Shown here piece by piece: positions 42,336 to 64,000 of a DNA stretch of 64,000 nt (the stretch's first letter is position 1; each line of letters starts with the position of its first letter). The DNA is from a virus (lineage: Duplodnaviria > Caudoviricetes): IMG/VR virus record IMGVR_UViG_3300032327_000953, positions 64,001 to 128,000 of that record; one strand, written 5' to 3'. The translations under genes were made by a program, and so were the position numbers. The notes below the pieces were generated by a model that worked only from the letters and a program-made list of their open reading frames with translations, was not told where the DNA came from and did no database searches.

Positions 42336-43006
42336 ACTTTTATCTTATCTATTAGGGTTTTAATATATTGTTGTAGCTTAAGTAATTGTTGTTTAGGAAC
42401 CTTTAATCCATGTTTCAACTTTAAATAGTTCTCTCTATATTCTTGCTCAATATTTTTATCTAAGTAATCTAATAGTTCTTTATTCTCAATTTTATCGACT
42501 AAATTATTGCTAGAAAATACCGAAGCTTCAGGATCCTTCTCAATGTATGTTGGCTGCATAATATTCTTTTTGGTTTCATTTCTGTGAGACCAACTAGCAT
42601 ATAGTTCACAGTCTTGCTTGCTGCTGTATTTTGAACACTGATTCTTAGAACAGGCATACGTCTTATCGAAAAAAGGACAGCCAAAACAAGGCTTGTCAGG
42701 ACGCTGATAGTTATTTCTTTTATAGTTGAAAAGTCGATTGCGTATGTGGGTCCATAGGAAATTTTCCAAGGGACGTTTATTATCGTACTTTTGAACACCC
42801 TCTAAAGCAAAAATATATGCCTGTTGCTTCATGTCATCAAAATCATGATAACCAAATTTGAATTTATATCCTAACCTTTTGCTAATATTTTCAACTACTC
42901 TGATAAATTCTTTTTCATCAATATCATGAGGTAATGAGGACGTTTCTATAACTGGTTTATTCTTGGTGGTTTTCTTGACTATTTTTTTCTTGTTCTTTTT
43001 CTTCAT
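42311..43006 (-). CDS. Phage sigma-70-family factor (region 2-like) with a Cys-rich insert
   Basis: DFDDMKQQAYIFALEGVQKYD...NFLWTHIRNRLFNYKR. Confidence 0.7.
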   Translation of the reverse strand: MKKKNKKKIVKKTTKNKPVIETSSLPHDIDEKEFIRVVENISKRLGYKFKFGYHDFDDMKQQAYIFALEGVQKYDNKRPLENFLWTHIRNRLFNYKRNNYQRPDKPCFGCPFFDKTYACSKNQCSKYSSKQDCELYASWSHRNETKKNIMQPTYIEKDPEASVFSSNNLVDKIENKELLDYLDKNIEQEYRENYLKLKHGLKVPKQQLLKLQQYIKTLIDKIKVCQKSEDS

Positions 43007-43220: not shown

Positions 43221-43454
43221 ATGGCAACATACAAGAAATGGGCCGAATCAGAACTTGAGTTTATCAGAAATAATCAAAAGCTACTAAGTGATGATGAATT
43301 GGCCGCAAAACTAGGACAAATGACTGGTAATGGGGTAACAACAGCTATGGTTAGACGACAAAGACGAAAGCTTGGCATTCAAAAGCCCAAGGGAAGAAGG
43401 CCCAAGAACAGAGTTGTAGAATCTCCAATTAATCAAGAAGTTAGTAATACTTGA
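43221..43454 (+). CDS. Myb/GcrA-like HTH DNA-binding protein
   Basis: KWAESELEFIR...SDDELAAKLG...MVRRQRRKLG. Confidence 0.65.
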   Translation: MATYKKWAESELEFIRNNQKLLSDDELAAKLGQMTGNGVTTAMVRRQRRKLGIQKPKGRRPKNRVVESPINQEVSNT

Positions 43455-48632: not shown

Positions 48633-48965
48633 TAACTGGCTAATAAACTGGCCAATTTATATATGGTGGTCCCTATTGTGTTTGCACCACCGCGACTTGT
48701 AGTGAAAAATCCGTACCAACCTTCTAAAAACGAAAAAACCCCCTAAGTATATGGTAGGTAAGGACTTATGTCTTGTTGGACGGGCCGGGCTTGACGTAAG
48801 TTGTTTGGTACCAACGACTTATGTCGAGTCAGCGTAAAGTCAGCCGATTCGGCACGATATTTGCACTACAAACCTTACGAAAATGCAAGGAAACTTTTCA
48901 CTTGCAAATAAAGTTTGGGATGGTATAATGTCGATATAAGAATAAGAGAAAGAAAAGAGGAAAAA

Positions 48966-49187
48966 ATGGAAAATCTGAATTATGATCTGGTTTCTGACTG
49001 CTGCGGTGCTGGTTGCTCTTTTGAGACCGGCGAGGGTAAGGATAGAATCGGGATTTGTATGGATTGCAAGGAATGGTGTGGTGTGGTTGAGGATATTCCG
49101 GAAGATGAGGCCGACTATATTCCGGGCCTTGACGATGGCGAATGGGAATCCGATGAGGATTGCTGTGGTGAAGAGGATTTTGCCTAA
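48966..49187 (+). CDS. Small acidic Zn-ribbon-like protein
   Basis: SDCCGA...CMDCKEWC; C-terminal DEADYIPGLDDGE shared with 50144..50392. Confidence 0.6.
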   Translation: MENLNYDLVSDCCGAGCSFETGEGKDRIGICMDCKEWCGVVEDIPEDEADYIPGLDDGEWESDEDCCGEEDFA

Positions 49188-49245
49188 GCCCTTGACAAAC
49201 TAATAGCCGATACTGTATAATAGCAACAACACAAAGGAAAAGAAA

Positions 49246-49467
49246 ATGAAAACTGCAACCGTGCGATCTGTTGGTAGGGTGTATCTGTTGAGCGACATTG
49301 TAAAGGCTATGATGGATCGATCCTATATTGGTCTGGTCGATCCTGCTGGGAAGTGCCATGTCGGTACGGTGAATGGTCTACAGATTGAAGATGGTAGTGG
49401 AAAGAATTATATCGTGACGATATACGCTAATGGTAAATCATCTAAGGTTTTTATCAAGGCTTCTTGA
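49246..49467 (+). CDS. Hypothetical protein
   Basis: 73 aa; own promoter and AAGGA RBS. Confidence 0.6.
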   Translation: MKTATVRSVGRVYLLSDIVKAMMDRSYIGLVDPAGKCHVGTVNGLQIEDGSGKNYIVTIYANGKSSKVFIKAS

Positions 49468-49607
49468 AAGGATATAGTATGTCGATTATTGATTATGTTA
49501 TATTGTTTTCTCTAATTGGTTTCTGTGCATTTATCACCTATACTGTGCATGAGGTGGGTAACGCTATCCATTCCATGCTGAATGACTAACACACTAAGGA
49601 ATATAGA

Positions 49608-49925
49608 ATGACACACGATGAAGCTACTAAGATGGTACATGGTAAGACTAAGCGGAAATCTCGTAAGGTAGGTAACAATACATACGCTGAGATATTGCCT
49701 GATAGTAGCGTAGGTATTATGCTACATGGTACGTATGTGGTAAAGATTCATTCTGACAATAGTGCTACCCTTAACACTGGGGGATGGTATACTAGTACCA
49801 CTAAGGATAGAATCAATCAGTATTCACCTGTACGTGTGTATCAACGTAAGGGAGAATGGTATTTAGAGAATGGTGATGAGTATACTGATGGTGTCGTAGT
49901 AGCTGATAATAATCTGGTATACTAG
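49608..49925 (+). CDS. Hypothetical phage protein
   Basis: 105 aa; LHGTYVVK and TSTTKDRIN pattern; AAGGA RBS. Confidence 0.65.
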   Translation: MTHDEATKMVHGKTKRKSRKVGNNTYAEILPDSSVGIMLHGTYVVKIHSDNSATLNTGGWYTSTTKDRINQYSPVRVYQRKGEWYLENGDEYTDGVVVADNNLVY

Positions 49926-50143
49926 ACGTAAGTCCTTGTCCCTAAACGACTTAGGGCGAGGCCGGCGGGCCCACGTTGACGTAACTCCTTATGTGCCAAC
50001 ATGTTACAGCTAATGCAAACGGCTAGCAAACGGTGTGCCACAACACGCCACGAACCTTACGGTATTGTAAGGAAAGATTTTGCTTGCAAGCTCAAGAATA
50101 CTTTGGTATAATGTCGATATAAGAAAGAATAGGAGAAAGAAAA

Positions 50144-50392
50144 ATGATTACGCTCGACAAGGTTATGGCTGGTGTTCGACAGGTTTTTGGTAAGGATTCC
50201 CACAAGGTGCGTGTGATTCAAGCCGGATCGTCGTTCAAGGTTGAGCCGAAAGATATGGTTCACGATGGGGTGTGGATTCGTTCGGAAAATGGTATTGAAA
50301 ATCAGCTGAACGATCTGTATTATGACATGGTGTGCGAGGCTTGTGCCGACGAGGCTGATTACATTCCGGGCCTTGACGATGGGGAGTTTTGA
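50144..50392 (+). CDS. Hypothetical protein
   Basis: 82 aa; AGGAG RBS; ends DEADYIPGLDDGEF. Confidence 0.65.
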   Translation: MITLDKVMAGVRQVFGKDSHKVRVIQAGSSFKVEPKDMVHDGVWIRSENGIENQLNDLYYDMVCEACADEADYIPGLDDGEF

Positions 50393-50590
50393 ATGAGCGT
50401 TTTTACCTTTCATCGAATAGACACTCACGAATATATCGGTATGTTTTTTGGTAAGGATTGGATGGAGGCTCGAAGTAAGGCTAGTATAAAAAGTGGAATA
50501 CCAGTGGATGATATTCTACCTTGGGCTTTCAATACTGAAACCTTTCCCCTACCTGAGAGGGATGAGACTCCCCACTACCCATATGACTGA
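50393..50590 (+). CDS. Hypothetical protein
   Basis: 65 aa, abutting the upstream stop codon. Confidence 0.5.
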   Translation: MSVFTFHRIDTHEYIGMFFGKDWMEARSKASIKSGIPVDDILPWAFNTETFPLPERDETPHYPYD

Positions 50591-50678
50591 ACCTTACGAC
50601 ATTGTAAGGTTGACAACATAAAATCAGTTTGGTATAATGCACACACAAGAGAACGATAGACCTAAGAGAGAAAAGAAA

Positions 50679-51053
50679 ATGAAAACCAAGTTCCCCATCA
50701 TCGAAAATGCCAAGCGTCAAGCCCGTATGATCTTCAAGGGTATCGCAGTGCCGATGCTCGTGGAAATCCCCGATGATAAGGTTGTGGACGATACCGATTA
50801 CGTCTACGGTGTGACCGATCAAAAGCGGTATGTCGTGACCGAAAAGGTTCTCAAGTTCAATCGTACCGCACTGAAGAATATCGGCAAGGCTCGTAAGGAA
50901 AAGGCTGATCCCCGCTATGTGGGGGGTGAGGATACCATGATCGTTCCGGTTGGCAAGCCGGGTAGCCGTGAACGTGTTGAAGAACTGACCAAGCAGTATG
51001 GTGCGGTTGCTCACCTTGAAATCAGCCCGTTCAGCTTCAAGGGGGAAGAATGA
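50679..51053 (+). CDS. Hypothetical protein
   Basis: Follows a TTGACA-N17-TATAAT promoter; start reassigned to MKTK. Confidence 0.6.
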   Translation: MKTKFPIIENAKRQARMIFKGIAVPMLVEIPDDKVVDDTDYVYGVTDQKRYVVTEKVLKFNRTALKNIGKARKEKADPRYVGGEDTMIVPVGKPGSRERVEELTKQYGAVAHLEISPFSFKGEE

Positions 51054-51404
51054 ACGACTGTACACTAGTGTACGACGTTACACTAGAGACTGAGCGATGG
51101 GTAAAGAGTACGTATGTAAGGCTATATCCTAAGCTATACCTACCCATATGGGTGGGTACTGAACGAATATACAGGAAACGAAAAACTTGACGTAAACCCT
51201 TGCTACTAAAGGACTTAGGGCAAGGGCGGCCCGCCGGGCGCGACGTAAGTGCTTATGCCTCAATGACTTACGGCAACATAGCAAATGCTGTACCAAATCA
51301 TGTTAGAAATACCTTACAGTATTGCAAGGAAAATTTTTCTGCTCTACCCTATTGACAAATGACGATAATAGATGTATAATCATAGGACAAGAAAGAAAGA
51401 GAGA

Positions 51405-51638
51405 ATGAAGATGAGAAAGCCTCCAAAAGTTTCGACCGTCAAGCGTAGCATCAATGGCTATGCCTACAAGTGTGGGTTCACATTTCATCCGAAAGAGGAT
51501 GGATCGTTTGCCCTGTTCGACATTCACATGGGATACTACGTTTGTCGTGGTACTCATGATCGTGTTGTCCAGTTTGTGATGGATGATCTGTGGGCAAGAT
51601 ACTACCGGTCGAATCCTACTCCGGTTAGTCTCAGCTAA
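51405..51638 (+). CDS. Hypothetical protein
   Basis: Downstream of the promoter at 51352; start approximate. Confidence 0.55.
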   Translation: MKMRKPPKVSTVKRSINGYAYKCGFTFHPKEDGSFALFDIHMGYYVCRGTHDRVVQFVMDDLWARYYRSNPTPVSLS

Positions 51639-51755
51639 CCCTACGGACTGGCCGTGCTGCATATAGTCAGTAAAGATAGGGGATCCTTTCGATATTGTAA
51701 GGTGTTGCAGGCTAAAGGTTGATGTGGTAGAATGTCGATAATAGATATAGGAAAG

Positions 51756-51983
51756 ATGACCAGTAACCAAGAGGAAAGTATGAAAAACGCTGTGTTGCCC
51801 CAGAGGTATGATTGGGTGGAGTTTGATTATAAGGGTGAGAACTTCCGTGGTGAGGTTCGTAGGGTTGAAGATAAGCCCAAGGGTAAATTAATGATTGTGA
51901 AAATCGGCCTGACCGAATATCGTTCGTGCTATCTTGACCAGTGTGAGAATCTGACCAATATCCCCCATGAGACGGAGGCTTGA
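51756..51983 (+). CDS. Hypothetical protein (SH3/WYL-like beta barrel?)
   Basis: VEFDYKGENFRGEV...YRSCYLDQC; start approximate. Confidence 0.45.
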   Translation: MTSNQEESMKNAVLPQRYDWVEFDYKGENFRGEVRRVEDKPKGKLMIVKIGLTEYRSCYLDQCENLTNIPHETEA

Positions 51984-52548
51984 ACATGAGAATGATCGAA
52001 TATCCTTTTGTGTGGGTTATGGGGGCTTTCCTTAAAGTGATGGAAACGCTCTGTGAAGTTTGGCAGAGAATTAACGAATATGAGAATATGAAATCTAGGG
52101 GTTATACTCTTATGAAAAGTGATAAGGGTGATGATTTCTGGGTAGGATATGGGGATTGATCCAATAACACTGGAGATACAGGGATGTATCAATTTGATTT
52201 TATTAGTGTTGCTTTTGGCTATATTGTCGGCATTTTACTGTCTGCTAGTATGTCACATATCATGTATATGGAGGAAAATAATGAAATCGAGTGACTACAT
52301 CTTATGGGGGGTATGCTTTACCCTTGGCTGCATTATGACGTATCTCCTTCATCAGTAAGGACTTACGTCGAGGCCGGCCCGCCCCGCGAAGCGTAAGTCT
52401 TTTCCCCACAACACTTTACGTCAACTGCAAAATTTTTCTGTTTGGCATGAAATTATATTTGCGAATTTTCCAAGTTACTGCTTGACACTAGCCGATAATA
52501 AGTGTAGAATCACAACATCACGAACGGTAACCACTAAGGAACAGAATC

Positions 52549-52716
52549 ATGCTGAACGATTTTGACGCTGTGAATCGGATTCTTGCTGAGATGGCCGAAC
52601 TGAACATCGTGGAGCCGATTGACGATCCTAGTATCCAGACCGATTTCTACGACTATGCCGAAGTGGTCGGAATTGATATTGACGATTTCGTTCCTCCGGA
52701 GTATGATAATGCTTAG
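52549..52716 (+). CDS. Small acidic protein (55 aa)
   Basis: Manual translation MLNDFDAVNRILAEMAELNIVEPIDDPSIQTDFYDYAEVVGIDIDDFVPPEYDNA*; AAGGA RBS. Confidence 0.6.
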   Translation: MLNDFDAVNRILAEMAELNIVEPIDDPSIQTDFYDYAEVVGIDIDDFVPPEYDNA

Positions 52717-52776
52717 TGTGATTGCGTTTGTTGCGTCCTATATTGGCCTGTTCTACATTACTACCATTGTGAAGGA

Positions 52777-53034
52777 TTGACCATGAGCTACGAATACGAC
52801 GATGTTGAAGATTTCTACGGTGAGTGCATGGACACTGACCTTTCCGATTATGAGGTTGAGGATGATTCGTTTGATGACAGTATGGATGGTGATGCTGAGT
52901 CTGCGTTGGCTTCCGCTGGATGGGGAACCGATGAGGATTACGGTTACTATGGCGACGATGGAGTAGAAGATTTCCACGCCGATGAGGCTGTGGGATTTGT
53001 GGATTACAATGAAGATGGCCCATATAACGACTAA
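52777..53034 (+). CDS. Extremely acidic protein lacking Lys and Arg
   Basis: About 30 Asp/Glu in 85 aa. Confidence 0.65.
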   Translation: MTMSYEYDDVEDFYGECMDTDLSDYEVEDDSFDDSMDGDAESALASAGWGTDEDYGYYGDDGVEDFHADEAVGFVDYNEDGPYND

Positions 53035-53051
53035 TTGAAAGGAAAGTAATA

Positions 53052-53450
53052 ATGGAATATCGTAAGATTGCAACGGGTATGATTGAGGCTACATACGAAA
53101 ATTATGTACAGTGGAGACAAGATGGTGTGCTGGATGAAGAACTGAATAAGCACAATCAAGAAATTCCCGTATGGGATGAAATGGATGATAATACCAAATG
53201 CTCTGCAATAGAGTATGTTTATCTCAACAGAGATACTATTGAGTTGCATTCGGGACTTGTAGAATCATGGGTACAGGCTACGGCTTACTTTATGATCTAT
53301 GATTTTGCTGCTATTCTCGCATATGACGGAAAGCCAGAAATCGAAATCTTTTTTGATGATTTGGATTTCATGATGGATGAGGATACTTTGGGGGATGAGA
53401 ATGTTCAGGAGCAACTTGGAATTAGTCCAGATTTTGGAGGAAAATTCTGA
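53052..53450 (+). CDS. Acidic hypothetical protein
   Basis: 132 aa; AAGGA RBS. Confidence 0.6.
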   Translation: MEYRKIATGMIEATYENYVQWRQDGVLDEELNKHNQEIPVWDEMDDNTKCSAIEYVYLNRDTIELHSGLVESWVQATAYFMIYDFAAILAYDGKPEIEIFFDDLDFMMDEDTLGDENVQEQLGISPDFGGKF

Positions 53451-53637
53451 GGTTCGCCGTAAACCCTTTGTGCATCAGCACTTAGGGCTTGCGCGGCCCG
53501 CCGGGCGCGACGTAAGTTCTTATACCACAACACTTTATGTCAACCTTACGATATTGTAAGGAAACTTTTTCTGATCTAACCTATTGACTTTGGACGATAA
53601 TAGATATATAATCATAGCAGAAGAAAGAGAGACAGAG

Positions 53638-53811
53638 ATGAAATATCAAGTTGGTGATGTTGTTCAAATGACTAATGGATACGGAATTATCAAGCAAATC
53701 ATTGGAAAGAATGTGCGAGTTCTGGTTTCTGGTCAATACGGATACGGTGAATGGTATACGTTTGATCAGATTGTTTCCCATGCTGCTCTGAGCAGAAATA
53801 AAGGGGATTGA
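53638..53811 (+). CDS. KOW/SH3-like small protein
   Basis: MKYQVGDVVQMTNGYGIIKQI. Confidence 0.5.
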   Translation: MKYQVGDVVQMTNGYGIIKQIIGKNVRVLVSGQYGYGEWYTFDQIVSHAALSRNKGD

Positions 53812-53860
53812 CATCGCGGAAAAGTTGTGGTAGAATGAAATACAAGAAAGAGAGTGAAAG

Positions 53861-54052
53861 ATGAGCAGTCGATATTACGAAGGTCGTTTTAATCCCTATA
53901 ACCGTCATGATACTGGGATGTATGTGGTCTATCGTAAGGCTGACAACAAGTATCTTGGTACTATTGTGGATTGTCGTAGTGCTACTGAAGCCAAGCGTAA
54001 AGCTGGTTATGAGTATGATTGTGAATGTTATGTAAGTGAAATTGAGGAATAG
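53861..54052 (+). CDS. Hypothetical protein
   Basis: 63 aa after a TTGACA-N17-TAGAAT promoter. Confidence 0.55.
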   Translation: MSSRYYEGRFNPYNRHDTGMYVVYRKADNKYLGTIVDCRSATEAKRKAGYEYDCECYVSEIEE

Positions 54053-54193
54053 AATGAAAACAAAAAAGAAAGAGTTGACAGCACACGAAAAAGCTGTTAT
54101 ACTCATGAATCGTGAGACTGATCGTGCAGTGAATCGCGTGAAGATGTTGGAACAGTTGTATCTTGAAACCATGAAAGCAAAGGAAGTTATTAA

Positions 54194-54424
54194 ATGAAGT
54201 GCGTTGTTACCCATACTGATACTTTTGGTGGTGAAGCTAACTACGGCTGGGTGAATCGTTACGAGTTTATCCCCAAGAAGAATGCTAGTCAGCGTAGCGT
54301 TGTTCGGAAAGCTAAGGCTCTGGCTGGTATGACTGCAGTCAAGGCTGATACCTATGACTATGGTGATCACTATAGTGTTAAGCCTCGTGGCTATGCTCAG
54401 ATCATCTTTGTTGATTTTGAGTAA
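54194..54424 (+). CDS. Hypothetical phage protein
   Basis: 76 aa; TDTFGGEANYGWVNR motif. Confidence 0.6.
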   Translation: MKCVVTHTDTFGGEANYGWVNRYEFIPKKNASQRSVVRKAKALAGMTAVKADTYDYGDHYSVKPRGYAQIIFVDFE

Positions 54425-54612
54425 ACTCTCCATCGTCGTAAACCCTTTGTGTTCAAGCACTTAGGGCCGACGGGGCGGGCCGAATTTGACGTAAGTTCTT
54501 ATGCTGCAACACTTTACGAGAATCCTTACAATCTCTTAAGATTCAAGTTTACCCCTTGCATTAGACGATAATAGATAGTAGAATGACGTATACAAGAAAG
54601 AGAGAGTGAAGC

Positions 54613-54876
54613 ATGAGTCCCGATGGATCATATCACGGATATCAAAACTACCAGACATGGAATGTTTGTCTGTGGATCAGCAATGATGAAACTTTGTATA
54701 GTCTGGCAAAGCAGTGTGGCTCTTACGAACATTTCAGAATTTTGATTCGTGAAATTTTTGAAGTGAGTCCTATCCGATTCGAAACGCCCGATTGTGTGGC
54801 TTGGAATGATAGTGGTATCAACATGGCTGAAATGGTAGAGTATTGGGAAGAAAATTTTTCTAAAGTTCCCGCTTGA
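54613..54876 (+). CDS. Hypothetical phage protein
   Basis: YHGYQNYQTWNVCLWISNDE motif. Confidence 0.6.
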   Translation: MSPDGSYHGYQNYQTWNVCLWISNDETLYSLAKQCGSYEHFRILIREIFEVSPIRFETPDCVAWNDSGINMAEMVEYWEENFSKVPA

Positions 54877-54946
54877 CAAACGCCGATAATTAGTGTAGAC
54901 TTGTGGCATGGATGTTGTGATAGGTTTTCAATTTGAAAGGGTTTCT

Positions 54947-55351
54947 ATGAACGATGTGATTTTGCTTGGTTCGATTCTGTCGGCTGTTGCCGCTGCTGTT
55001 GTGGGTTTCGTCTTCTATTCGGTCTATGGTGGATCGAAAGCTAGTTTGGCGAATGCCCAAGAGGGTCAAGTCTATAACTTTGTTTATGAGCAGCCGTTGC
55101 ACGGAACGCATGAGCGTTTTCTTGCTAAGGTGATCGGCAAGCAGACGTTGACTGCTGACCAGATTGCGAGACTGAATCGCAAGAGTCGGTATCGTATCAA
55201 TGATCCTGAGTTCATCCGTACCAGTAATCTGGTAACGTGTCGAACTGCGGATGGTAAGGTGCGTAATTTCTATGCAGAGCGAGTGACCAAGTGCCGAAAG
55301 CCTCTCCTGGCCGGTGCTTTGTTCAAGAGCGGGTTTGCTAACCTGTTCTAA
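54947..55351 (+). CDS. Membrane-anchored protein with a WYL-like C-terminal motif
   Basis: N-terminal hydrophobic helix; VTCRTADGKVRNFYAERV. Confidence 0.45.
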   Translation: MNDVILLGSILSAVAAAVVGFVFYSVYGGSKASLANAQEGQVYNFVYEQPLHGTHERFLAKVIGKQTLTADQIARLNRKSRYRINDPEFIRTSNLVTCRTADGKVRNFYAERVTKCRKPLLAGALFKSGFANLF

Positions 55352-55550
55352 AAACTAGCAGTCTCTGCCTACTAACTGACCAACCCCTAACCCTTTGACA
55401 CCAAAGGACTTAGGGCGAGGTCGGCTGCCCCGCTTCGTCGTAAGTCTTTATGTATCAACACTTTACGACAATCTTTTTTTGCTCAAGTTTTTCCTCTTGA
55501 CAAGCCGATAATAGTAGTGTAGAATACAGGGAATCAAAAGGAGAAAAAAG

Positions 55551-55832
55551 ATGTTTATGTTCAATAAGCCGTATGCTTTGTCGGATCGTACAACTCGGAC
55601 GATCACCACAGTGAATGATGTGGATATGATCGAGTTCAGTGGCATTTCCCTTGGTGGTCGTGAGTTTAGCATAGTCACGAAACTTGAGGATGCCCAGCGT
55701 TGGGTGAACGGAGAGTTGATTCAAATTGCTTTTCCGTATCTCAATGCTGATGATCGTGAGGTTCTTAAAACGGGAATTGATGCTGAGTCTTGGGAAGCAA
55801 TGTTCGCAGGATCAGAGGAGGATGAAGAATGA
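55551..55832 (+). CDS. Hypothetical phage protein
   Basis: LIQIAFPYLNADDREVLKTGI motif; AAGGAG RBS. Confidence 0.65.
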   Translation: MFMFNKPYALSDRTTRTITTVNDVDMIEFSGISLGGREFSIVTKLEDAQRWVNGELIQIAFPYLNADDREVLKTGIDAESWEAMFAGSEEDEE

Positions 55833-56074
55833 ATACTGATACCTATATGGTGATGAAGGGTAATAAGGTTGTGGGCTATGTGGAAGCCTATAGTACCTAT
55901 CATGCACTGGTTATGGCCGAAAAGTTGTATGGTAAGAATTTGCTCATTGAGCGAATCTCCAATGTTTGTCCCGCCTAACCCTACGGGGTCGGGCTGGATG
56001 GGTTTAGTCAGCCAATAGTCGGGGCTTGACAAGGGGTCTTTAATAGAGTATATTGGGCAGAAAGGGAGAGAATT

Positions 56075-56278
56075 ATGTTGACCAATGAAGAACGAAACGC
56101 TGTTTGTGATAGTGTGGCCGAGTTTGCCATTCGTTTGCTGAATGCTGCTACTGTTGATGAGCAAGCTATGCACGAAGAACTGGATATTTTCTTTGAGTTC
56201 TTTTGTAAGGCTCTTGAGATTGCCCGAAGGGATGGGGTGGTTAGGGTTCGTGAGTCTATTGGTGCTAGTAATAACTAA
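56075..56278 (+). CDS. Hypothetical protein
   Basis: 67 aa; GGGAG RBS. Confidence 0.55.
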   Translation: MLTNEERNAVCDSVAEFAIRLLNAATVDEQAMHEELDIFFEFFCKALEIARRDGVVRVRESIGASNN

Positions 56279-56287
56279 GGGGATATC

Positions 56288-56467
56288 ATGAAAGTTTGTC
56301 CATGTGGGTCTGGCAAGAAAAGTTGGTGGGAAAGTGATGCTCGGGGAATTCCACTGGGTAAGGTTTGTTTGGAGTGTGTGGATAAAAAGTTGAGTAAGTA
56401 TAGGCCAGAAGTGTTGACCAACTCAAATTATGAGTGTGATGAGCCTATTGAGGCCGAAGACTATTAG
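56288..56467 (+). CDS. Small Zn-binding protein with a SEC-C-like CPCGSGK motif (59 aa)
   Basis: Manual translation MKVCPCGSGKKSWWESDARGIPLGKVCLECVDKKLSKYRPEV... Confidence 0.65.
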   Translation: MKVCPCGSGKKSWWESDARGIPLGKVCLECVDKKLSKYRPEVLTNSNYECDEPIEAEDY

Positions 56468-56624
56468 TCGTAAGTCCTTATCCTTAAACAACTTAGGGAT
56501 AGGGCGGGCGGCCGACTTTGACATAAGTGCTTGTGTGTCATAAGGTTACATCAATGCTAAAAAATTTTTGGAATTTCTACAGATAGCTCTTGACAAGTGA
56601 CGATAATAGATGTATACTTAGCAC

Positions 56625-57300
56625 ATAAGCAGATGAGGGCCGCTGGCAGAATGATATCAAAGAAGCCACGGTTAAATGCAAGGCCGAGTATGGCATAACC
56701 CAATCTGTTTATTTTACAATACAAAACTCGTGGGTCCATGCCTTGGACTAGGTTGGGATAGCCTATTTCGATAAACACTGCGGCTGTAATGCAGCGTAGG
56801 GTTGCCAACGGGGCTATACGTTGGATAGAAGTACCAATCTATGGGGGGTCGCGTCCTCACCACGATTCATACAATCATGCGGTGGAGATTATCAGGTATG
56901 ATTTCCTTTACTATGCGTGGCCTAACAGCCTAGACGTTGCAACGCCGCATAGACGCATGATACAATACAATCAGTAATCGTTCCCAAGAGCCAGACAGAT
57001 TGCTTCATGAACAATCTCAGGGAGGTTTCCGTGGACGGTTTCCACTAGTGTTTACCTGGCCCAAGGGTTAAAAATATCGGGTATTAGTGGAGTATAGAAC
57101 CGGAGTCGTAAATGGTTCGCTGATTATAAACAGGGGTCGGATAGAAACCTTAGATAAGGTAAAACCTTGAGGTTGGTTAATGCGTGATACCGGACATTAT
57201 CTGTAAAACTATCGTGGTGATAAAACAAGCACGCTCTAGCAGCGTATGGGTGCAATTCCCATATCATCATAAGTCGATCCATTAACACCCGGTATACAAT
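56625..57300 (+). ncRNA. Candidate large structured non-coding RNA or small-RNA array
   Basis: Follows the promoter at 56590-56618; no RBS-supported ORF seen; many hairpins; repeated ACAATAC-type linkers; tRNA-like fold at 57215-57270. Confidence 0.5.
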
Positions 57301-57313
57301 ACAAAGGAGAAAG

Positions 57314-57520
57314 ATGATGATTGCTACAAAAGAATTGATTGCTGAAGCAAAACAACTTGCCCAAGATAATTATGCGGGTTGGGGGCAATATGTGGTAGAA
57401 TGCTATGAGGATAGTGAGTTAGCCGAAAGTCTTGAGAGTTTTGATACTCTAGAAGATTGGGTAGAAGTTAGGATTGCGGTGGCAGAAGTATATGCAGAGA
57501 GGGAGGCTTTCTATGAGTAA
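57314..57520 (+). CDS. Hypothetical protein
   Basis: 68 aa; AAGGAG RBS. Confidence 0.6.
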   Translation: MMIATKELIAEAKQLAQDNYAGWGQYVVECYEDSELAESLESFDTLEDWVEVRIAVAEVYAEREAFYE

Positions 57521-57676
57521 GGACGAAGCGATCATTAAGGTTCTAAGGGTTTTAAGGAGCCAATCGGCTGCTGTAAATAAGAGTAATCGGGAAGAGGCAT
57601 TGACTTTAGCAGAAGAGCATGGTATAACTGCTAAGGAATTGATTGACACTTGGGTGGAAATTTGTAGGAATATATA

Positions 57677-57931
57677 ATGGAATGGATTAGTTTTTTTGAG
57701 AAGCAACCAGAGGATGGACAAGGTATTTGGTATTATGGTGAACATATTGGTGTGTGGGCTGGAGAGTATTCTTATTCTCCAAATGACCCTTTTAGTCCTC
57801 ATCTTATATTTTGTCATGAATCTCCCGGTCTAGTTGACCGAATGGATGCTCCGTGGTGGATGCTTGATGATGGAGTGATGAATAGGCCAATTAAACCAAT
57901 AAAAGATTATCCAGCCGATTATCCTAGTTGA
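57677..57931 (+). CDS. DUF551-like protein
   Basis: MEWISFFEKQPEDGQGIWYY start pattern. Confidence 0.5.
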   Translation: MEWISFFEKQPEDGQGIWYYGEHIGVWAGEYSYSPNDPFSPHLIFCHESPGLVDRMDAPWWMLDDGVMNRPIKPIKDYPADYPS

Positions 57932-58097
57932 CATAAGTCCTTGCTGCTAAAGCACTTAGCACAAGGCCGGCCGGCCCCATTCGCCATAAGTCCTTACTAC
58001 TAAAGGGTTTAGGTTTAATCCTGATTTTTTCAAGATTCTCTATTGACAGGTCGATACTAGTAGTGTAAGATACTAGCAACACACGAAAGGGAATAAG

Positions 58098-58337
58098 ATG
58101 ACTGTTGCTGAACTGATCGAAGAACTGAACAAGCTGCCACAAGATATGCTGGTACTGGTGCCGGGTTATGAGTGTGGATATGATAATGTTGAAGTTAGAC
58201 CTAATACTGCTGTTCGTCTAAATGATAATTGGGATGGACAAGAGAAGATTAATTGGTGGGATGGCAGACATTCTATGTCTTTCGGCCCTACTGAAGATGA
58301 GATTACGCATTGTGTTGTTCTTTGGAGAGGTAAATGA
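58098..58337 (+). CDS. Hypothetical phage protein
   Basis: MTVAELIEELNKLPQDMLVLV motif. Confidence 0.65.
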   Translation: MTVAELIEELNKLPQDMLVLVPGYECGYDNVEVRPNTAVRLNDNWDGQEKINWWDGRHSMSFGPTEDEITHCVVLWRGK

Positions 58338-58753
58338 AAACGGTTGAAAAACACGCCGAAGTACGATTTCATCTACTAAACGGGCCTAATTATAAAAAAT
58401 GGCAGGTAAACGTGATGCAAGGAAAGAAAAGGGTTGACCAATTTTATGTAGACCCTACAGAATACCAGCTGGAGATGCGTGGTTGCAAGCTGGTAAATAA
58501 GGTAGCTAGGGCAAAATGGGTCAACAAGAAACAGAAAAAGAATGTTAGTGGTTGGGTGCAGTGTGAGGAGGTTATGCTTCGCAAGGATTTACCTATTGAT
58601 GGTCTTGAAAAACTATATTACAATCCAATTAAAGACATTAGATGGCGTAGAGAATCGGACTCTGGAGAATTTGAGTGGGATGATTATGAGTTTGATACTC
58701 TTGTAACTGACGGCAGACAGGTTCATGTGCTTGAGGAAAGATCGTCTGGGTGA
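58334..58753 (+). CDS. Hypothetical phage protein
   Basis: 139 aa; RFHLLNGPNYKKWQV. Confidence 0.6.
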   Translation: MKTVEKHAEVRFHLLNGPNYKKWQVNVMQGKKRVDQFYVDPTEYQLEMRGCKLVNKVARAKWVNKKQKKNVSGWVQCEEVMLRKDLPIDGLEKLYYNPIKDIRWRRESDSGEFEWDDYEFDTLVTDGRQVHVLEERSSG

Positions 58754-59199
58754 TGTAAAATAAAATGACAATTAGCACACAAACATTCACATTTGTTAAT
58801 TTCAGATATTAATTTATCCCAACTAGTATGTGCTGCTTGTGATGCTATTGTGAAAGATTTAGTAGATGGATCTTGATGGTGCCACTGTAATGCTCTATAA
58901 TCATTAAACCCACACTTGTTGCATTTTTGTTTTTTCATAAATTCTCTATATTTCTGTATTTTCTTTTTACGAGACTTAGAAGAATTTTGATTTAACTTTA
59001 ATCTAGTGTCTTCATTTTGATAAAGCTTTTTAATTCTTTGGCTATGGTATTTTTTTCTATCTACTAGATTTTTACTATAGTATTTTTGTGATTCTTTAAC
59101 TCTGCACTCTTTACATTGTGGTCTTGGTTTACCACGATTGTAGCTGAACATGTCTAGTGATTTATCTATTTTGCATTTTGTACATATTTTAGTATTCAT
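58723..59199 (-). CDS. HNH endonuclease with an N-terminal Zn ribbon
   Basis: CTKC...CKEC; CNKCG...WHHQDP...CLCANCH; start reassigned to MNTKIC. Confidence 0.8.
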   Translation of the reverse strand: MNTKICTKCKIDKSLDMFSYNRGKPRPQCKECRVKESQKYYSKNLVDRKKYHSQRIKKLYQNEDTRLKLNQNSSKSRKKKIQKYREFMKKQKCNKCGFNDYRALQWHHQDPSTKSFTIASQAAHTSWDKLISEINKCECLCANCHFILHHPDDLSSST

Positions 59200-59334
59200 T
59201 ATATCTCCTATTGTTGACTCCAATGTAAAATACACCAAAAATATCTCTGGAGTCAAAAAAGATTTTCAAGAGAGCTATTGACATTGGCCGATAAGAAGAT
59301 ATACTAAGCAGAACAACACCTTTGGAGGAAAAAG

Positions 59335-59709
59335 ATGATCAAGATCGAACTGAGCGTCCGTGAGTCGTTGAACATGATTGCAAACGGTTGCAGTCTGGAT
59401 ATGTTCGACAAGATTGTGTGTGCGTTGGAGGTGGCATTGGGTGTTAACCAGCGTCGTATGGTAACGATCACCGGAGGTCTGACTCTGGACAATCGTATCC
59501 ATTCCATCAAAGCTATTCGGCTTCATACCGGATGGGGCTTGAAGGAAGCCAAGGATTGGAGTGACTATCTGGTTGGCGGCTGGCATTACGACAAGTTCGT
59601 TCCTGCTAAATCCGGAGCCAAGCAGAGCATCACTCTGAAAACGCCCGAAGCGGCAGAGGCACTGCTGCGTGATCTGGTTGGTCTGGGTTGCGAGGGTTTT
59701 CTATCTTGA
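59335..59709 (+). CDS. Protein with a ribosomal protein bL12 (L7/L12) C-terminal-like domain
   Basis: RIHSIKAIRLHTGWGLKEAKDWSD. Confidence 0.6.
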   Translation: MIKIELSVRESLNMIANGCSLDMFDKIVCALEVALGVNQRRMVTITGGLTLDNRIHSIKAIRLHTGWGLKEAKDWSDYLVGGWHYDKFVPAKSGAKQSITLKTPEAAEALLRDLVGLGCEGFLS

Positions 59710-59994
59710 CCTAAAGCCTTGTCCCTAAAGCACTTAGGGCGAGGCCGACCCGCCGAATTTGACGTAAGTCCTTATCAGCAAACAACTTAGGACAAAATCA
59801 AAAATCTTTGAGGCTCACTCAAGTTCCTGCTTGACAATGACGATACTATACTGTAGAATGGTAGTATCACGAGACAAGACCCCACGATGATGCCAACACT
59901 AGAAACCATCACGACGGACTTGACAAGTGGGTAACAGTAACGTATACTGATACTAGAACGATTGGTAACTGTAACACTTTTTGGAGAACGTAAG

Positions 59995-60249
59995 ATGAAG
60001 AAGTTTAGCTTTGCGGTTGATATTGTTGGCGACGAGATTGATTCGGCTGATGTGGTTGCTACTCTTACAAAGGCGTTGAATGATGAGCTTCCTGGTGATG
60101 TTCATGCGAATGTCAAGGCTGCTGGTATCAAGGCTTTTAGCGAGCAGGGTTATAAGGTGTGGCGTGCCCGCGTGACGGGTGTGACTGCCGAAGCTGCGGG
60201 TGATGCCCATGATGGTAAGGTAGAGAAGGAAGTTGAGACGGTTGCGTGA
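59995..60249 (+). CDS. Hypothetical protein
   Basis: Preceded by two tandem promoters (59831 and ~59920). Confidence 0.55.
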   Translation: MKKFSFAVDIVGDEIDSADVVATLTKALNDELPGDVHANVKAAGIKAFSEQGYKVWRARVTGVTAEAAGDAHDGKVEKEVETVA

Positions 60250-60339
60250 TCGACTCTATGGAGTTATAATGACTGCGAGCCTCTACAGGACGCTGTGGGG
60301 GCTTGCGGTATTGAGTGAGTACGGTATAATATACAACAC

Positions 60340-60412
60340 GCTGCCGTGGCCGAGTAGATTAGGCATCAACCTTCTAAGTTGATTTACGAGGGTGCAAATC
60401 CTTCCGGCAGTA
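60340..60412 (+). tRNA. tRNA-Arg(UCU)
   Basis: Acceptor GCTGCCG/CGGCAGT; anticodon loop CTTCTAA; atypical T-loop TGCAAAT. Confidence 0.8.
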
Positions 60413-60869
60413 TTAAGTCTCCATGATCTAATTCCCAGTGGTGGTTGGGACAAAGAGCTATAAGATTATCTATCTTATTTATCTCTCCGACTGTTGCTGT
60501 TTTAGGGAATGATGAAATAGCTTTGATATGACATACTTCAAAGTGTTTATCGTACCCACAAATCATACAACATTCTGGTTTTCCAGACGATTTATAAATT
60601 TTTCTGGATAGATTTCTAATCCTAGAATTTTTTTGATATTTCCGAGTTTGGATAGCATCTCCATAAGTTATAGAATTCCAATCTTTATTCATTGGATTAC
60701 AATCTACGCAAAATTTTCTTCTAAAGAATCCAGTTTCTTTACCACAAGATGAGCAGTAATTGATTCTTTTTTTGCGTTTAGGTATTTTATTAGTGGTTTT
60801 AGCTGCACAAGATCTAGAGCAAAAATTTGGATTATTTGTTTCCTTGCCGCAATGTCTACAATTGATCAT
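60384..60869 (-). CDS. HNH endonuclease
   Basis: CMICGYDKHFEVCHIK...NLIALCPNHHWELD; N-terminal Zn motifs. Confidence 0.85.
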   Translation of the reverse strand: MINCRHCGKETNNPNFCSRSCAAKTTNKIPKRKKRINYCSSCGKETGFFRRKFCVDCNPMNKDWNSITYGDAIQTRKYQKNSRIRNLSRKIYKSSGKPECCMICGYDKHFEVCHIKAISSFPKTATVGEINKIDNLIALCPNHHWELDHGDLILPEGFAPS

Positions 60870-61085
60870 ATTAATCTCCTAATAGAAAGTGAAACTACTT
60901 CTATATACACCAAAACATATTCGATTCTAAATCCTTTGCCAGTAAGCACTTAGGGCAAACTCGGCGGGCCGGCCTTGTCGTAAGTCCTTATCTACCAACG
61001 ACTTGCATCAAAAATAATTTTGTGAAGTTTTTCGCTTGACCTTGCCGATACTATAGTGTAGAATCGGTAGACACAGGAGAAGAAC

Positions 61086-61790
61086 ATGAAAACTGCTGAT
61101 GGTAATGATAAGTTGGGTAAGGGTTGTATTGTGGTTTCGCGTCCGGTTGGCGATACTTGCCCGCCCGATTGCGACTATCTTGGTAATGGCTGTTATGCCG
61201 AAGCGACTGAGAATCAGTATAAAAATGCCCGCACTGCCGGGTTTGCTAATGTTATCACGGAGAAGAATAAAATCCGTGCCATGATTCTAGAAGCAAAGCG
61301 TCGTGAGAAGTCTATTCGCTGGCATGAGCGTGGCGACTGGTTTCTCAATGGCGAGCTTGATCTTGACTATGTTGCGAATGTAACGTGGGCTTGTGAGAGT
61401 ATTCTTGCCGATGGTAATACTCTGCCCGATATGTGGTTTTATACTCATATTTATGATTCCCGGCTTGTGAGTCTGGAAAAGTATATGAATGTATATGCTA
61501 GTATTCACGATGATAATGATATGGGTGAAGCACTGGCACAGGGTTTCAAAAAGTTTGCATGGTGTGATAGTGATATGAAGTTTGCTCCCAAGCGTCCCAA
61601 GAGCAAAGCAAAAGCCGAAGCATGGAGACAAGCACTGCCGAAGCTGGTTGTAATCAATGCTACAAAGTTTGTAGTATGTCCCGAAATCCGTCGTGGTCGT
61701 TCGGAAATCACTTGCACCGGCACTAAAGATAGTATATCATGTGACTTGTGTGTTCGTGGTTTAGGCAACGTATTATTCCCCGCCCATTGA
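61086..61790 (+). CDS. Gp88-like Cys-motif protein
   Basis: TCPPDCDYLGNGCYA and IRWHERGDW motifs. Confidence 0.55.
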   Translation: MKTADGNDKLGKGCIVVSRPVGDTCPPDCDYLGNGCYAEATENQYKNARTAGFANVITEKNKIRAMILEAKRREKSIRWHERGDWFLNGELDLDYVANVTWACESILADGNTLPDMWFYTHIYDSRLVSLEKYMNVYASIHDDNDMGEALAQGFKKFAWCDSDMKFAPKRPKSKAKAEAWRQALPKLVVINATKFVVCPEIRRGRSEITCTGTKDSISCDLCVRGLGNVLFPAH

Positions 61791-61801
61791 AAGGATTTGG
61801 C

Positions 61802-62362
61802 ATGAGCTACGTTGGATTGTATGATGATGCAGGAAGTAAGAACGCTTTCTATATTATTAAGGACAAAAAGATTGGCCGTAAACGTGTGGGCTTCAAAGAG
61901 TTTGAGAATGAGCAAGAGGCACAGTTTGCCCATCGGGCTCAAAAGCATCTGGCACAGTTTGATTTGGCCCCTATGGTATATGGGGATGTTGGTATGATTC
62001 GTAGGCATGATGGTGAATTAACTTGTTATGGTTATTTAACCGAAGTTGCTCGACCTATGCCAGTATGTCATGACGATGATTGTGATGGTGAATGTTTTCA
62101 ATCGGAATGTAGTAATGGTATAACTATCTGTGAAGTAGTTTCCGATTTAAGTGAACAAGGTTTAGAATATAATGATTCCCACAAGGGTAATTTTGGTTAT
62201 GTTCGACGTAAGGGTTCATGGGTTCCGGTTGCTATCGACCTTGGGGTTGAGAGTTTTACTGAATGGGATGAAGATATTTATGGAGAGTTTGATTACGATG
62301 ATAACGATGGTTATGGAGAATGTAACTGTGTTCAATGTTGTATGTTTCGAGAGGAACAATAA
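61802..62362 (+). CDS. Protein-kinase-like fold enzyme
   Basis: VGFKEF (beta3 Lys), DSHKGN catalytic loop and IDLG (DFG-like). Confidence 0.65.
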   Translation: MSYVGLYDDAGSKNAFYIIKDKKIGRKRVGFKEFENEQEAQFAHRAQKHLAQFDLAPMVYGDVGMIRRHDGELTCYGYLTEVARPMPVCHDDDCDGECFQSECSNGITICEVVSDLSEQGLEYNDSHKGNFGYVRRKGSWVPVAIDLGVESFTEWDEDIYGEFDYDDNDGYGECNCVQCCMFREEQ

Positions 62363-62592
62363 TGAGCAAATACTATATCAAATGTGGGACACTAGAACTA
62401 ATTTATTCCTGCAATAAATGTCCACGAGATGCTGCTATGGATGCAATATGGGAAACAAATGAAAATGATACGCTAGATGAACACTTCTATATAGATGAAC
62501 GTGGATATAAAGACTATGTTACTGCTGATGGACGAACAAAAGTATTACGCACTTCTCATATTCTAAAAGACGCAGGATGGAGTATTGAATAA
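62362..62592 (+). CDS. Hypothetical protein
   Basis: MSKYYIKCGTLE; abuts the kinase-like gene stop. Confidence 0.55.
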   Translation: MSKYYIKCGTLELIYSCNKCPRDAAMDAIWETNENDTLDEHFYIDERGYKDYVTADGRTKVLRTSHILKDAGWSIE

Positions 62593-62939
62593 TGTGGATT
62601 ATTATTGATGAGAAAAAAGTAAGACACTTGTGGGAATGTGCAGATTGCGAGGCTAGTGTTTATGTAGAACCTTGGTTCTATTCTGAAATGGGAACGCCTT
62701 TCTGTAAGGATTGTGAGAAAGATATGGAATATATAAACACGCAGATAGATATTGAAAAATAAGACTTGCCGCAAACCCTTGGTGTGTAAGCACTTAGGGC
62801 AAGCGCGGCGGGCCGGCTTTGACGTAAGTTGTTGCAGGATAAAGACTTAGGGAATTTCAGAAAAGTCCTAAAGTGTTGGGGGTGGTTGGCCGATAAATAT
62901 GGTATGAGAACGAGAAGGATATTGACAAGGACTGAGATT

Positions 62940-63299
62940 ATGATACAATGGATCGGGATTCTGATTACGATTGTGGGTTTGGCGTATACTGGTGTAAAAG
63001 ATTATCAAAAAGGTGATATTAAATTGTCCAGACTTCCACAAAAACAAGTCTTGACAAAACCAGTCTATCCGGTACAATACTGTCTGATGGCTTACGACCC
63101 TAATGTTGACAAGGTTTTTTACTTACACGAAAATGGACAATGGCATGATTACGCTCCACAACAACGACGATACCAGACCACGCCGCAACCATATCAAGAT
63201 CAAGGTGCGACCGCAGTGGCAAGTTCCTACGGGTCACAAGGAACACCGCAATACTATTATGGACAATCGCCCCAAGCGTCTGCGAACCCGATCCGCTGA
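62940..63299 (+). CDS. Membrane-anchored Gln/Tyr/Pro-rich protein
   Basis: MIQWIGILITIVGLAYTG transmembrane-like segment. Confidence 0.5.
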   Translation: MIQWIGILITIVGLAYTGVKDYQKGDIKLSRLPQKQVLTKPVYPVQYCLMAYDPNVDKVFYLHENGQWHDYAPQQRRYQTTPQPYQDQGATAVASSYGSQGTPQYYYGQSPQASANPIR

Positions 63300-63349
63300 A
63301 AAGCGTAGGGCTTGCGACTATGGGGACTATTGACTATAATAACCTGTTT

Positions 63350-63422
63350 GCCGATGTAACTCAGTTGGTAGAGTAGCAGTTTTGTAAACTGCCTGTCGTC
63401 AGTTCGATTCTGACCATCGGCT
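63350..63422 (+). tRNA. tRNA-Thr(UGU)
   Basis: Acceptor GCCGATG/CATCGGC; loop TTTGTAA; TTCGATT T-loop. Confidence 0.92.
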
Positions 63423-63423
63423 C

Positions 63424-63494
63424 TCCGGGATGGTGAAACGGTATCACAAAGGATTTTGGTTCCTTTTTTCTACGTTCGAATCGTAGTCCCGGAA
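63424..63494 (+). tRNA. tRNA-Gln(UUG)
   Basis: Acceptor TCCGGGA/TCCCGGA; loop TTTTGGT. Confidence 0.9.
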
Positions 63495-63505
63495 CTGTAA
63501 GATGA

Positions 63506-63577
63506 TGTCCGATAGCTCAACGGTAGAGTAGGCGGCTGTTAACCGCTTGGTTCTAGGTTCGAATCCTAGTCGGACAG
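63506..63577 (+). tRNA. tRNA-Asn(GUU)
   Basis: Acceptor TGTCCGA/TCGGACA; loop CTGTTAA. Confidence 0.92.
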
Positions 63578-63582
63578 CTTAA

Positions 63583-63671
63583 GGAAGAATGGCAGAGTGG
63601 TCTAATGCACCGGTTTACTAAACCGGAGATCCCTTAACCGGGGTCCGTGGGTTCGAATCCTACTTCTTCCG
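63583..63671 (+). tRNA. tRNA-Ser with the rare ACU anticodon
   Basis: Acceptor GGAAGAA/TTCTTCC; G73; long variable arm; loop TTACTAA. Confidence 0.85.
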
Positions 63672-63811
63672 CTATAAATCCTTAACATATAAAGACTTAG
63701 AGCAAATCCGGCGGGCCGCGCTCAACGTAAGTTCTTTATCCATAACGACTTAGGATTTTCTAAAGAAATCACTTGACTCTTGACGATACATAGTGTAGAA
63801 TAGTCCAGCAC

Positions 63812-63887
63812 GGGGCGTAAGGTAAGCCGGTAGCATCCGTCACTCTTATAAGGTGATCATAGGTACGTTCGACTCGTACACGCCCTA
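63812..63887 (+). tRNA. tRNA-Ile(UAU)
   Basis: Acceptor GGGGCGT/ACGCCCT; A73; loop CTTATAA. Confidence 0.85.
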
Positions 63888-63916
63888 CTCGGAGGCTGAT
63901 GATTGAGTTACGAAAC

Positions 63917-63987
63917 ATTGGAGTAGTTCAACGGTAGAATGACGGTCTCCAAAACCGTAGATGAGGGTTCGATTCCCTCCTCCTTTG
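63917..63987 (+). tRNA. tRNA-Trp(CCA), acceptor stem imperfect
   Basis: Loop CTCCAAA; canonical T-arm; ATTGGAG/CTCCTTT contains two T-T mismatches. Confidence 0.65.
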
Positions 63988-64000
63988 CTTGGCCCCATTG

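Follow-up and report, generated by a model that had tools for sequence, protein, structure and literature searches.

A 78-bp double box between early gene units and sigma70-type promoters in an uncultured phage clade

Repeated, promoter-linked palindromes are known from the early regions of T4-like phages, where they are called promoter-early stem-loops (PeSLs; Arbiol 2010; Comeau 2014, PMC4122927). A PeSL is repeated between small early open reading frames (ORFs) and consists of a palindrome, A/T-rich DNA, a near-consensus sigma70 promoter and a Shine-Dalgarno (SD) sequence, with a palindrome that differs between lineages (PMC4122927). PeSLs have been linked to indels and unit shuffling in the hyperplastic regions of T4-like myoviruses and to the excision of minicircles between tandem copies (PMC4122927). 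Here we analyzed a 64,000-nt stretch of DNA (the window) that corresponds to bases 64001-128000 of a complete 238,135-bp uncultured phage record with terminal repeats (IMGVR_UViG_3300032327_000953; genome G000), and describe a 78-bp element in its early region that is composed of two 25-bp boxes separated by a 28-bp spacer. In architecture and evolutionary behavior, PeSLs appear by analogy to be the closest known thing to this element. Unless marked as genome positions, coordinates are those of the window.

Anatomy, distribution and conservation of the element

The exact pattern TAAGT-N15-ACTTA matched nine sites in the window, compared with 0.18 expected by chance, and all of the matches lay beyond 48.7 kb. 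A mismatch-tolerant search, together with reading of the sequence, gave 13 copies, all on the plus strand: 48744..48821 (copy 1), 49929..50006 (copy 2), 51193..51270 (copy 3), 52341..52418 (copy 4), 53460..53537 (copy 5), 54439..54516 (copy 6), 55388..55465 (copy 7), 56471..56548 (copy 8), 57934..58011 (copy 9), 59712..59789 (copy 10), 60928..61005 (copy 11), 62772..62849 (copy 12) and 63675..63752 (copy 13). Copy 1, which is preceded by AAAAAACCCCC and opens the array as its counterparts do in the relatives, is the most degenerate, and copy 3 has the highest position weight matrix (PWM) score. A first-pass annotation of the window had listed these 13 copies, with invariable 15/28/15 lengths and starts 0.9-1.85 kb apart; all are present, the 25/28/25 geometry of box, spacer and box was found in every one, and the measured start distances are 903-1844 bp. 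The same annotation described both boxes as TAAGT/ACTTA palindromes. Two boxes are indeed present, but only 9 of the 26 have the exact form, and their middles are poorly palindromic.

We then scanned the whole genome with a PWM built from the copies. The scan returned 15 copies, all on the plus strand within an 18-kb stretch (genome 112,744-130,470); two of them, at genome 129236 and 130393, fall shortly beyond the end of the window. No copy was found elsewhere in the 238-kb genome, which agrees with the first-pass annotation, in which none had been noticed at positions 1-48700. The relaxed skeleton TAA-N4-TT-N7-AA-N4-TTA had 24 matches in the genome, compared with 3.6 in shuffled sequences, and 22 of the 24 were boxes of the element. 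Boxes occur in the genome only as pairs at a spacing of exactly 53 bp, and the skeleton search revealed no solitary box.

The phage, which has a very long tape-measure gene and structural genes on the minus strand, belongs to a clade without a cultured relative. No related DNA was found among GenBank phages, where the best terminase match was only 24% identical (Bacillus siphophages) and the element was likewise not found. IMG/VR, on the other hand, contains hundreds of related contigs, with ~600 terminase matches and identities of 76-84% among the best 80. A paper on a 'moraphage' (PMC12619734) could not be linked to this clade. A scan of related phage contigs had been proposed with the first-pass annotation; of the five complete or near-complete relatives examined, four uncultured jumbo phages (G001-G004) carry 14-17 copies each, on the same strand and in a single stretch of ~18-20 kb. 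A scan of viral contigs with a 14-base pattern gave mostly chance matches. When 596 Gb of prokaryote genomes were scanned with a 20-base skeleton, multi-copy matches appeared only on short freshwater contigs of metagenome-assembled genomes (MAGs) whose taxonomic labels were inconsistent, and these contigs are most likely mis-binned phage DNA. The scan therefore revealed no host family of repetitive extragenic palindromic (REP) sequences or miniature inverted-repeat transposable elements (MITEs) that matches the element; such a match had been named in the first-pass annotation as one that would overturn its reading.

Conservation was analyzed in 176 distinct copies from related phage contigs. 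Seven positions are invariant (A2, T23, T24, A55, A56, T76 and T77), and eight others are conserved in at least 95% of the copies (A3, T9, A17, A18, T54, T61, T62 and A70). The invariant positions are mirror-symmetric within each box, and the set is identical in the two boxes. The middles of the arms are conserved yet non-complementary, the four half-sites being TAAACCCTT, TAAGTSCTT, TAAGTSCTT and TAA(A)GTSGTT. Between orthologous copies, the identity of the skeleton exceeds 90%, whereas the seven-base centers (N7) and part of the spacer show 40-60% pairwise identity, approximately the same drift as that of unconstrained flanks. The conserved part is sequence and not structure. The coexistence of invariant and drifting positions speaks for selection on specific contacts rather than mere homogenization.

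The spacer had been described as varying freely, which was not borne out. Its core (positions 32-47) has a GC content of 78%, compared with 35% in the boxes and flanks, and frequently contains GGCC; on the 3' side, the spacer closes with a conserved (T)TTGACG. This last motif was considered as a promoter and dismissed, as inspection showed no -10 hexamer at a usable spacing on either strand. Either orientation of the core motifs occurs, with GGCGGGCC present in 42 copies and GGCCCGCC in 15; as far as can be judged from the sequence, this suggests a property of the duplex rather than an RNA motif.

Early units, promoters and a second palindrome type

Each copy stands between the end of one early unit and the promoter of the next. 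The last gene of a unit is conserved, and its stop codon precedes the element by 2-36 bp (3 bp in the case of copy 2); copy 13 starts 3 bp past the end of tRNA-Ser. In two conserved ORF families, box 1 is both coding sequence and element, and the stop codon lies within the box (52300-52365, at copy 4, and genome 128758-129261). The earlier claim of 0-40 bp after the last stop codon or tRNA-Ser is thus in keeping with most copies, two ORFs ending within box 1 itself.

Every copy in the genome is followed by a sigma70-type promoter, 20-81 bp downstream, and these promoters form one family. A promoter had previously been thought only usual, at ~30-150 bp; its presence proved to be general and its distance shorter. 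Its members combine TTGACA with either TAGAAT or TATAAT, share the spacer sequence ..CGATAAT.. and are preceded by two phased T-tracts. The 13 promoters that follow the copies in the window are all on the plus strand. Those after copies 1 to 5 are at 48902..48929, 50084..50112, 51352..51380 (12/12 consensus matches), 52482..52510 and 53584..53612, and a weaker member of the same family (8/12) follows copy 6 at 54555..54584. The next five are at 55497..55525 (31 bp from copy 7), 56590..56618 (41 bp from copy 8), 58043..58071 (31 bp from copy 9), 59831..59859 (41 bp from copy 10) and 61036..61064 (30 bp from copy 11). Copy 12 is followed by a promoter at 62922..62949, and the promoter 20 bp from copy 13 (63773..63801) drives tRNA-Ile and tRNA-Trp. 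Further promoters occur inside units, and no other terminators were predicted in the early region. Across five genomes, the most frequent distances from the element end to the -35 hexamer were 30-31 bp (20 cases), 41 bp (7), 35 bp (6) and 20 bp (3); in G000 taken by itself, a distance of 20, 30-31 or 41 bp is found in seven different units. The steps among the preferred distances correspond to one helical turn.

Several other features accompany these promoters. The spacer of the early promoter family carries ..GACGATAATAGATG.., for example at 51352-51380, 53584-53612, 55497-55525 and 56590-56618. In the first units, a -35 hexamer is preceded, at a distance of 0-25 bp, by a small palindrome, CCTTAC-N6-G(T/C)AAGG. 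Its first copy, at 48873..48890 on the plus strand, is located between element and -35, and more copies start at 50055, 50592, 51312, 51685 and 53544. In relatives, it often adjoins box 2 (..CGAACCTTACGG..); the small palindrome could represent either a weak hairpin or a further operator. Both lineages described here have a motif (A/T)TAGCAAAT...GT(G/A)CCAAA downstream of their first few elements (50007-50050, 51271-51300, and the early units of G005). Seven tRNA genes (Arg, Thr, Gln, Asn, Ser, Ile and Trp) are placed within the promoter and element units (60340-60412 and 63350-63988). Behind the promoter at 56590-56618 is an ORF-poor stretch of 650 nt (56625-57275) that has no Rfam match and an RNA-fold z-score of just -1.7; its DNA is conserved at 77-98% identity in G001-G004 and still at 72% in G005, which lacks most of the neighboring early genes, and it is possibly a conserved non-coding RNA.

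The fifth relative, G005, lacks the 78-bp element although its terminase is ~79% identical to that of G000. Its early region instead contains pairs of CTGCCAAAATGGCAG, exactly 29 bp apart and with a 14-bp GC-rich spacer (L228/L229, G005:C1:10001-42000, minus strand). We refer to this pair as type B and to the 78-bp element as type A. The type-B pair is followed by T-tracts and by the same promoter family, which is thus common to both lineages, at 23-24 bp (once 13 bp) from the -35 hexamer. Type B was also found on L016, L034, L069 and L071, and no contig has both types. In 62 distinct type-B copies, deviations were one-sided only, with no compensatory pairs, and the AAA center was conserved; a single copy in the scanned type-B stretch was terminator-like. 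The likeness of the type-B stem (CTGCC...GGCAG) to a repeat stem of type I-F CRISPR (clustered regularly interspaced short palindromic repeats) was taken as chance, as the flanks differ. Types A and B are unrelated in sequence and alike in layout: a pair at exact spacing, with a GC-rich spacer, just upstream of the A/T tracts of a promoter. The simplest explanation would be that they represent two sequence-specific recognition systems in one functional slot.

Structural tests, unit rearrangement and competing interpretations

We examined whether base pairing is conserved in the element. The two local hairpins that the palindromic boxes of the first-pass annotation would form were rejected, because in 41 copies 73.2% of cells pair, compared with 73.8 +/- 0.4% when the 3' letters are shuffled within columns; box positions 4-6/20-22 and 59-60/72-73 are unpaired in most copies. 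A long hairpin or central helix spanning the whole element was also ruled out, its RNAalifold energy (-11.8) being within the range of within-column shuffles (-10.4 +/- 2.5). A mutual information signal between 21/22 and 57/58 reflects the co-inheritance of subfamilies and includes a C.C mismatch, and does not support a helix. The GC-rich core was likewise rejected as a terminator hairpin, since shuffled sequences reach the same stability. A rule requiring a hairpin and a T-run flagged none of the 13 copies as an intrinsic terminator, and no stem is followed by a U-tract. Among Rfam covariance models, the element was unmatched even at E<=1, and only tRNAs matched (also at the gathering score). 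Fold strength is about equal on the forward and reverse strands, with a slight forward advantage in the left and central parts.

One further hairpin, H1 (positions 5-16 with 24-35), joins the N7 of box 1 to the start of the spacer. H1 stood out against permutation between copies (z = -6.3), and in a test on 54 non-redundant copies at most 1 of 200 permutations was as good. At a fixed register, however, it was not above shuffles, and when the variable segment was shuffled within each copy as a composition control, 70 of 200 shuffles were as good. We therefore reject H1 as a family-wide hairpin and keep it as a property of a subset, few of the copies being strong.

The first-pass annotation had asked whether gene content varies as whole units among relatives, and this was found only in part. 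Unit order is mostly syntenic, and the most conserved gene of a unit is its last. In G001, units are swapped and moved; G002 and G004 have one extra unit each; G004 has an additional element between two genes, and G003 lacks one element. Of the gene adjacencies that span an element, 72-73% are kept, compared with 89-92% of those within units, and synteny breaks are enriched approximately 3-fold at elements, so the units act as rearrangement modules. However, changes in gene content are also seen within units, where the 5' ends are affected most.

Judging from these comparisons, we tentatively favor, with somewhat less than even confidence, the interpretation that the double box provides paired binding sites on duplex DNA for a putative lineage-specific protein and may serve as an insulator or regulator of the early units. 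A symmetric protein that recognizes duplex DNA is suggested because sequence conservation is mirror-symmetric without selection for base pairs; recognition of the duplex is further suggested because pairing is obligatory at an exact distance, the GC-rich core is indifferent to strand, and the element has a replaceable counterpart in the sister lineage. In the boundary module that we propose, the order would be a stop codon, the 78-bp double box as the upstream half, A/T-tract (possibly UP-like) DNA and a consensus sigma70 promoter. The two quasi-palindromic sites, TAA-N4-TT-N7-AA-N4-TTA with a half-site near TAARYNSTT, would act as duplex DNA, with centers 53 bp (~five helical turns) apart and separated by a presumably stiff GC-rich core. 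We infer that a sequence-specific protein, encoded by the phage or the host and probably acting as two dimers, binds both sites. The bound complex might insulate or regulate early units by blocking read-through from upstream, or might act as a global switch on the next promoter, as would be needed in early shut-off, for instance. A paired operator or roadblock was among the readings offered by the first-pass annotation, and it fits best with the symmetric conservation, the exact spacing, the quantized -35 distances and the sister-lineage slot; the protein may act as a roadblock or insulator, as a repressor or activator of the next promoter, or in both ways. Because the modules are near-identical repeats, homologous rearrangement of entire units would in addition occur preferentially at them, as it does at PeSLs.

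Several observations weigh against this interpretation. A search among the early ORFs yielded no candidate for the binding protein. The helix-turn-helix protein at 43221..43454, which the first-pass annotation had put forward, was rejected: it is equally conserved in the type-B lineage and does not track the element type. There are 143 ORFs present in G003 and absent in G005, and the best-conserved of these, together with the fastest-diverging ORFs, showed no DNA-binding Pfam domain and no useful Atlas neighbor. The preferred promoter distances could reflect the descent of duplicated whole modules. The 29-bp spacing of type B is a non-integral number of helical turns, and because of this, binding to the same face is not a general rule. 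A strong box-1 hairpin is possible in 12 of the 54 non-redundant copies and in 46% of all copies, and some box-1 orthologs look compensatory (e.g. CCCTAA/TTAGGG versus CTGTAA/TTACAG). Orthologous copies are moreover not independent, so that counts across genomes overstate the sample size. Finally, strict co-orientation with transcription and linkage to stop codons would also be expected of an element at transcript 3' ends, and in rearrangements the element stays with the upstream gene, as shown by three junctions located in box 2 or at the 3' edge of this box.

Separately, two sigma-factor-like ORFs (42311-43006 on the minus strand and genome 194087-194206) match Sigma70_r2 and Sigma70_r4. Together with the lack of a detected phage RNA polymerase, they are consistent with a phage that redirects the host RNA polymerase.

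It is because of the strict orientation and stop-codon linkage of the element that a role at the transcript level, although we consider it unlikely, remains a serious rival. The element would then be recognized by an RNA-binding factor at the 3' end of each early unit, where it might terminate transcription in a non-canonical way, serve for processing or block an exonuclease. The position 2-36 bp past stop codons or a tRNA, the movement with the upstream gene, the strong hairpins of a subset, the slightly better folding of the forward strand and the lack of other predicted terminators all favor such a role. It is opposed by the absence of covariation for any fixed helix, by the loss of the register-tolerant H1 signal under within-copy shuffling, by the missing U-tract and by a GC core that is not strand-specific, and symmetric invariants with unpaired arm middles would be unexpected for an RNA hairpin. 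Rather improbable, in our view, is a PeSL-type repeat that is kept alike by duplication or gene conversion and that, as a loose stem-loop without a dedicated factor, serves mainly as homology for module shuffling. Its architecture (a stem-loop-like repeat, A/T-rich DNA, a sigma70 promoter and an SD sequence) agrees with the published description, including the lineage-specific stems (PMC4122927), and the lower gene adjacency across elements than within units and the whole-unit insertions, swaps and fusions between genomes are as such a repeat would predict. However, fully invariant positions stand beside freely drifting ones in phages whose terminases are 76-84% identical, and such a repeat accounts neither for the GC-rich core nor for spacings of exactly 53 bp and 29 bp.

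Readings based on recombination fared worse. An integron analogue with a non-attC site, in which recombinase-independent or host-driven crossovers at box 2 move promoter-plus-gene units between phages, seems very doubtful, and marginally more doubtful still is a site-specific recombination site for integron-like cassette exchange, with 9-bp arms and a 7-bp center used by an unrecognized or host recombinase. The inverted arms and centers fit the latter geometrically, and both the enrichment of synteny breaks and the three junctions at or just after box 2 point the same way. Nevertheless, the N7 centers differ between copies and between orthologs, each unit has its own promoter, many gene changes fall inside units, and no attC-like motifs are present. 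With Pfam models, moreover, no tyrosine recombinase (PF00589), serine recombinase or resolvase, or Y1 transposase was found in the complete G000; no match to PF00589 exceeded the threshold in G001-G005, and none of the other two was conserved among the five relatives. The earlier observation that the window has no recombinase gene can thus be extended to the whole genome, and the integron-like shuffling proposed with it is not supported. We regard it as highly improbable that the element is a signal in the form of single-stranded DNA or a hairpin, be it for promoter recognition by an injected polymerase, for priming or for nicking; the common strand of all copies, the hairpin potential of a subset and the frequent GGCC in the core would suit such a signal, but a consensus sigma70 promoter already follows every copy and structural covariation is lacking. 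A Pfam search for a T7-type RNA polymerase was empty here and in every control genome, so that absence is not shown. Least probable of all is that phage and host chromosome share a selfish repeat of the REP or MITE kind. An extragenic palindromic repeat 3' of genes is superficially like a bacterial interspersed mosaic element (BIME), but the confinement to one strand of a single 18-kb region, the lack of a Y1 transposase, the absence from GenBank phages and the restriction of prokaryotic multi-copy matches to short, probably mis-binned contigs all argue otherwise.

Comparison with known systems

The early host-takeover regions of large uncultured phages consist mostly of orphan genes, and their organization and exchange are poorly understood. 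The present element is a sharply defined and strongly conserved cis element that occurs in 14-17 copies per genome and in many related freshwater contigs, delimits early transcription units, and is matched in a sister lineage by an interchangeable counterpart. Together with a cognate binding protein, should there be one, it could form a compact, orthogonal operator/regulator or insulator system and open a way to study how early genes are controlled in this uncultured clade of phages.

Dispersed or paired palindromes at variable but phased distances upstream of promoters are known as the p4 sites of phi29, the KorB O_B sites of RK2 and the C1 operators of P1, which we treat only as leads. As in these systems, the palindromes described here are numerous and paired, consistent with cooperative binding; however, the sequences are unrelated, and searches of these genomes found no ParB or KorB-type gene. 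Like the attC sites of integrons, the elements are imperfect palindromes at the 3' ends of gene cassettes. They differ from attC in their fixed length, their sequence conservation without covariation, and the absence of R and L box motifs and of an integrase (IntI); furthermore, integron cassettes are promoterless and share a common promoter, whereas each unit here has at least one consensus promoter. In core sites of tyrosine recombinases the overlap is identical in the two partners, unlike the differing N7 centers. The REP sequences and BIMEs of enterobacteria are also extragenic paired palindromes downstream of genes and are able to affect mRNA ends and bind proteins, but the element is not in a host chromosome, has a single orientation and a single cluster, and is not accompanied by a REP-associated tyrosine transposase (RAYT, Y1). 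The RNase III sites of the T7 early region similarly punctuate a polycistronic region with repeated structured sites; here, in contrast, there is no conserved long helix or covariation, and every unit has its own promoter.

The likeness to PeSLs is closer. In both cases, a motif is repeated between small early ORFs, with a palindrome upstream of A/T-rich DNA, a sigma70-like early promoter, and an SD sequence at which the downstream gene starts; the sequence of the palindrome differs from lineage to lineage, and indels and replacements between relatives cluster at the elements. The difference lies in the fixed double box of 25+28+25 bp with its GC-rich core and invariant symmetric positions, which is neither a simple stem-loop nor a canonical terminator. 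The palindromic element is located 20-81 bp upstream of every -35 hexamer, has no U-tract and shows no selection on pairing. The surrounding region is variable, but the phage itself is not a recognized T4-like phage, given its terminase (24% identity to those of Bacillus siphophages) and its very long tape-measure gene. As the modules mark rearrangement points of early gene blocks, the PeSL idea may reach beyond T4-like phages. By this comparison, the fixed-geometry double box appears to be new, and would extend the promoter-linked repeat known from T4-like phages.

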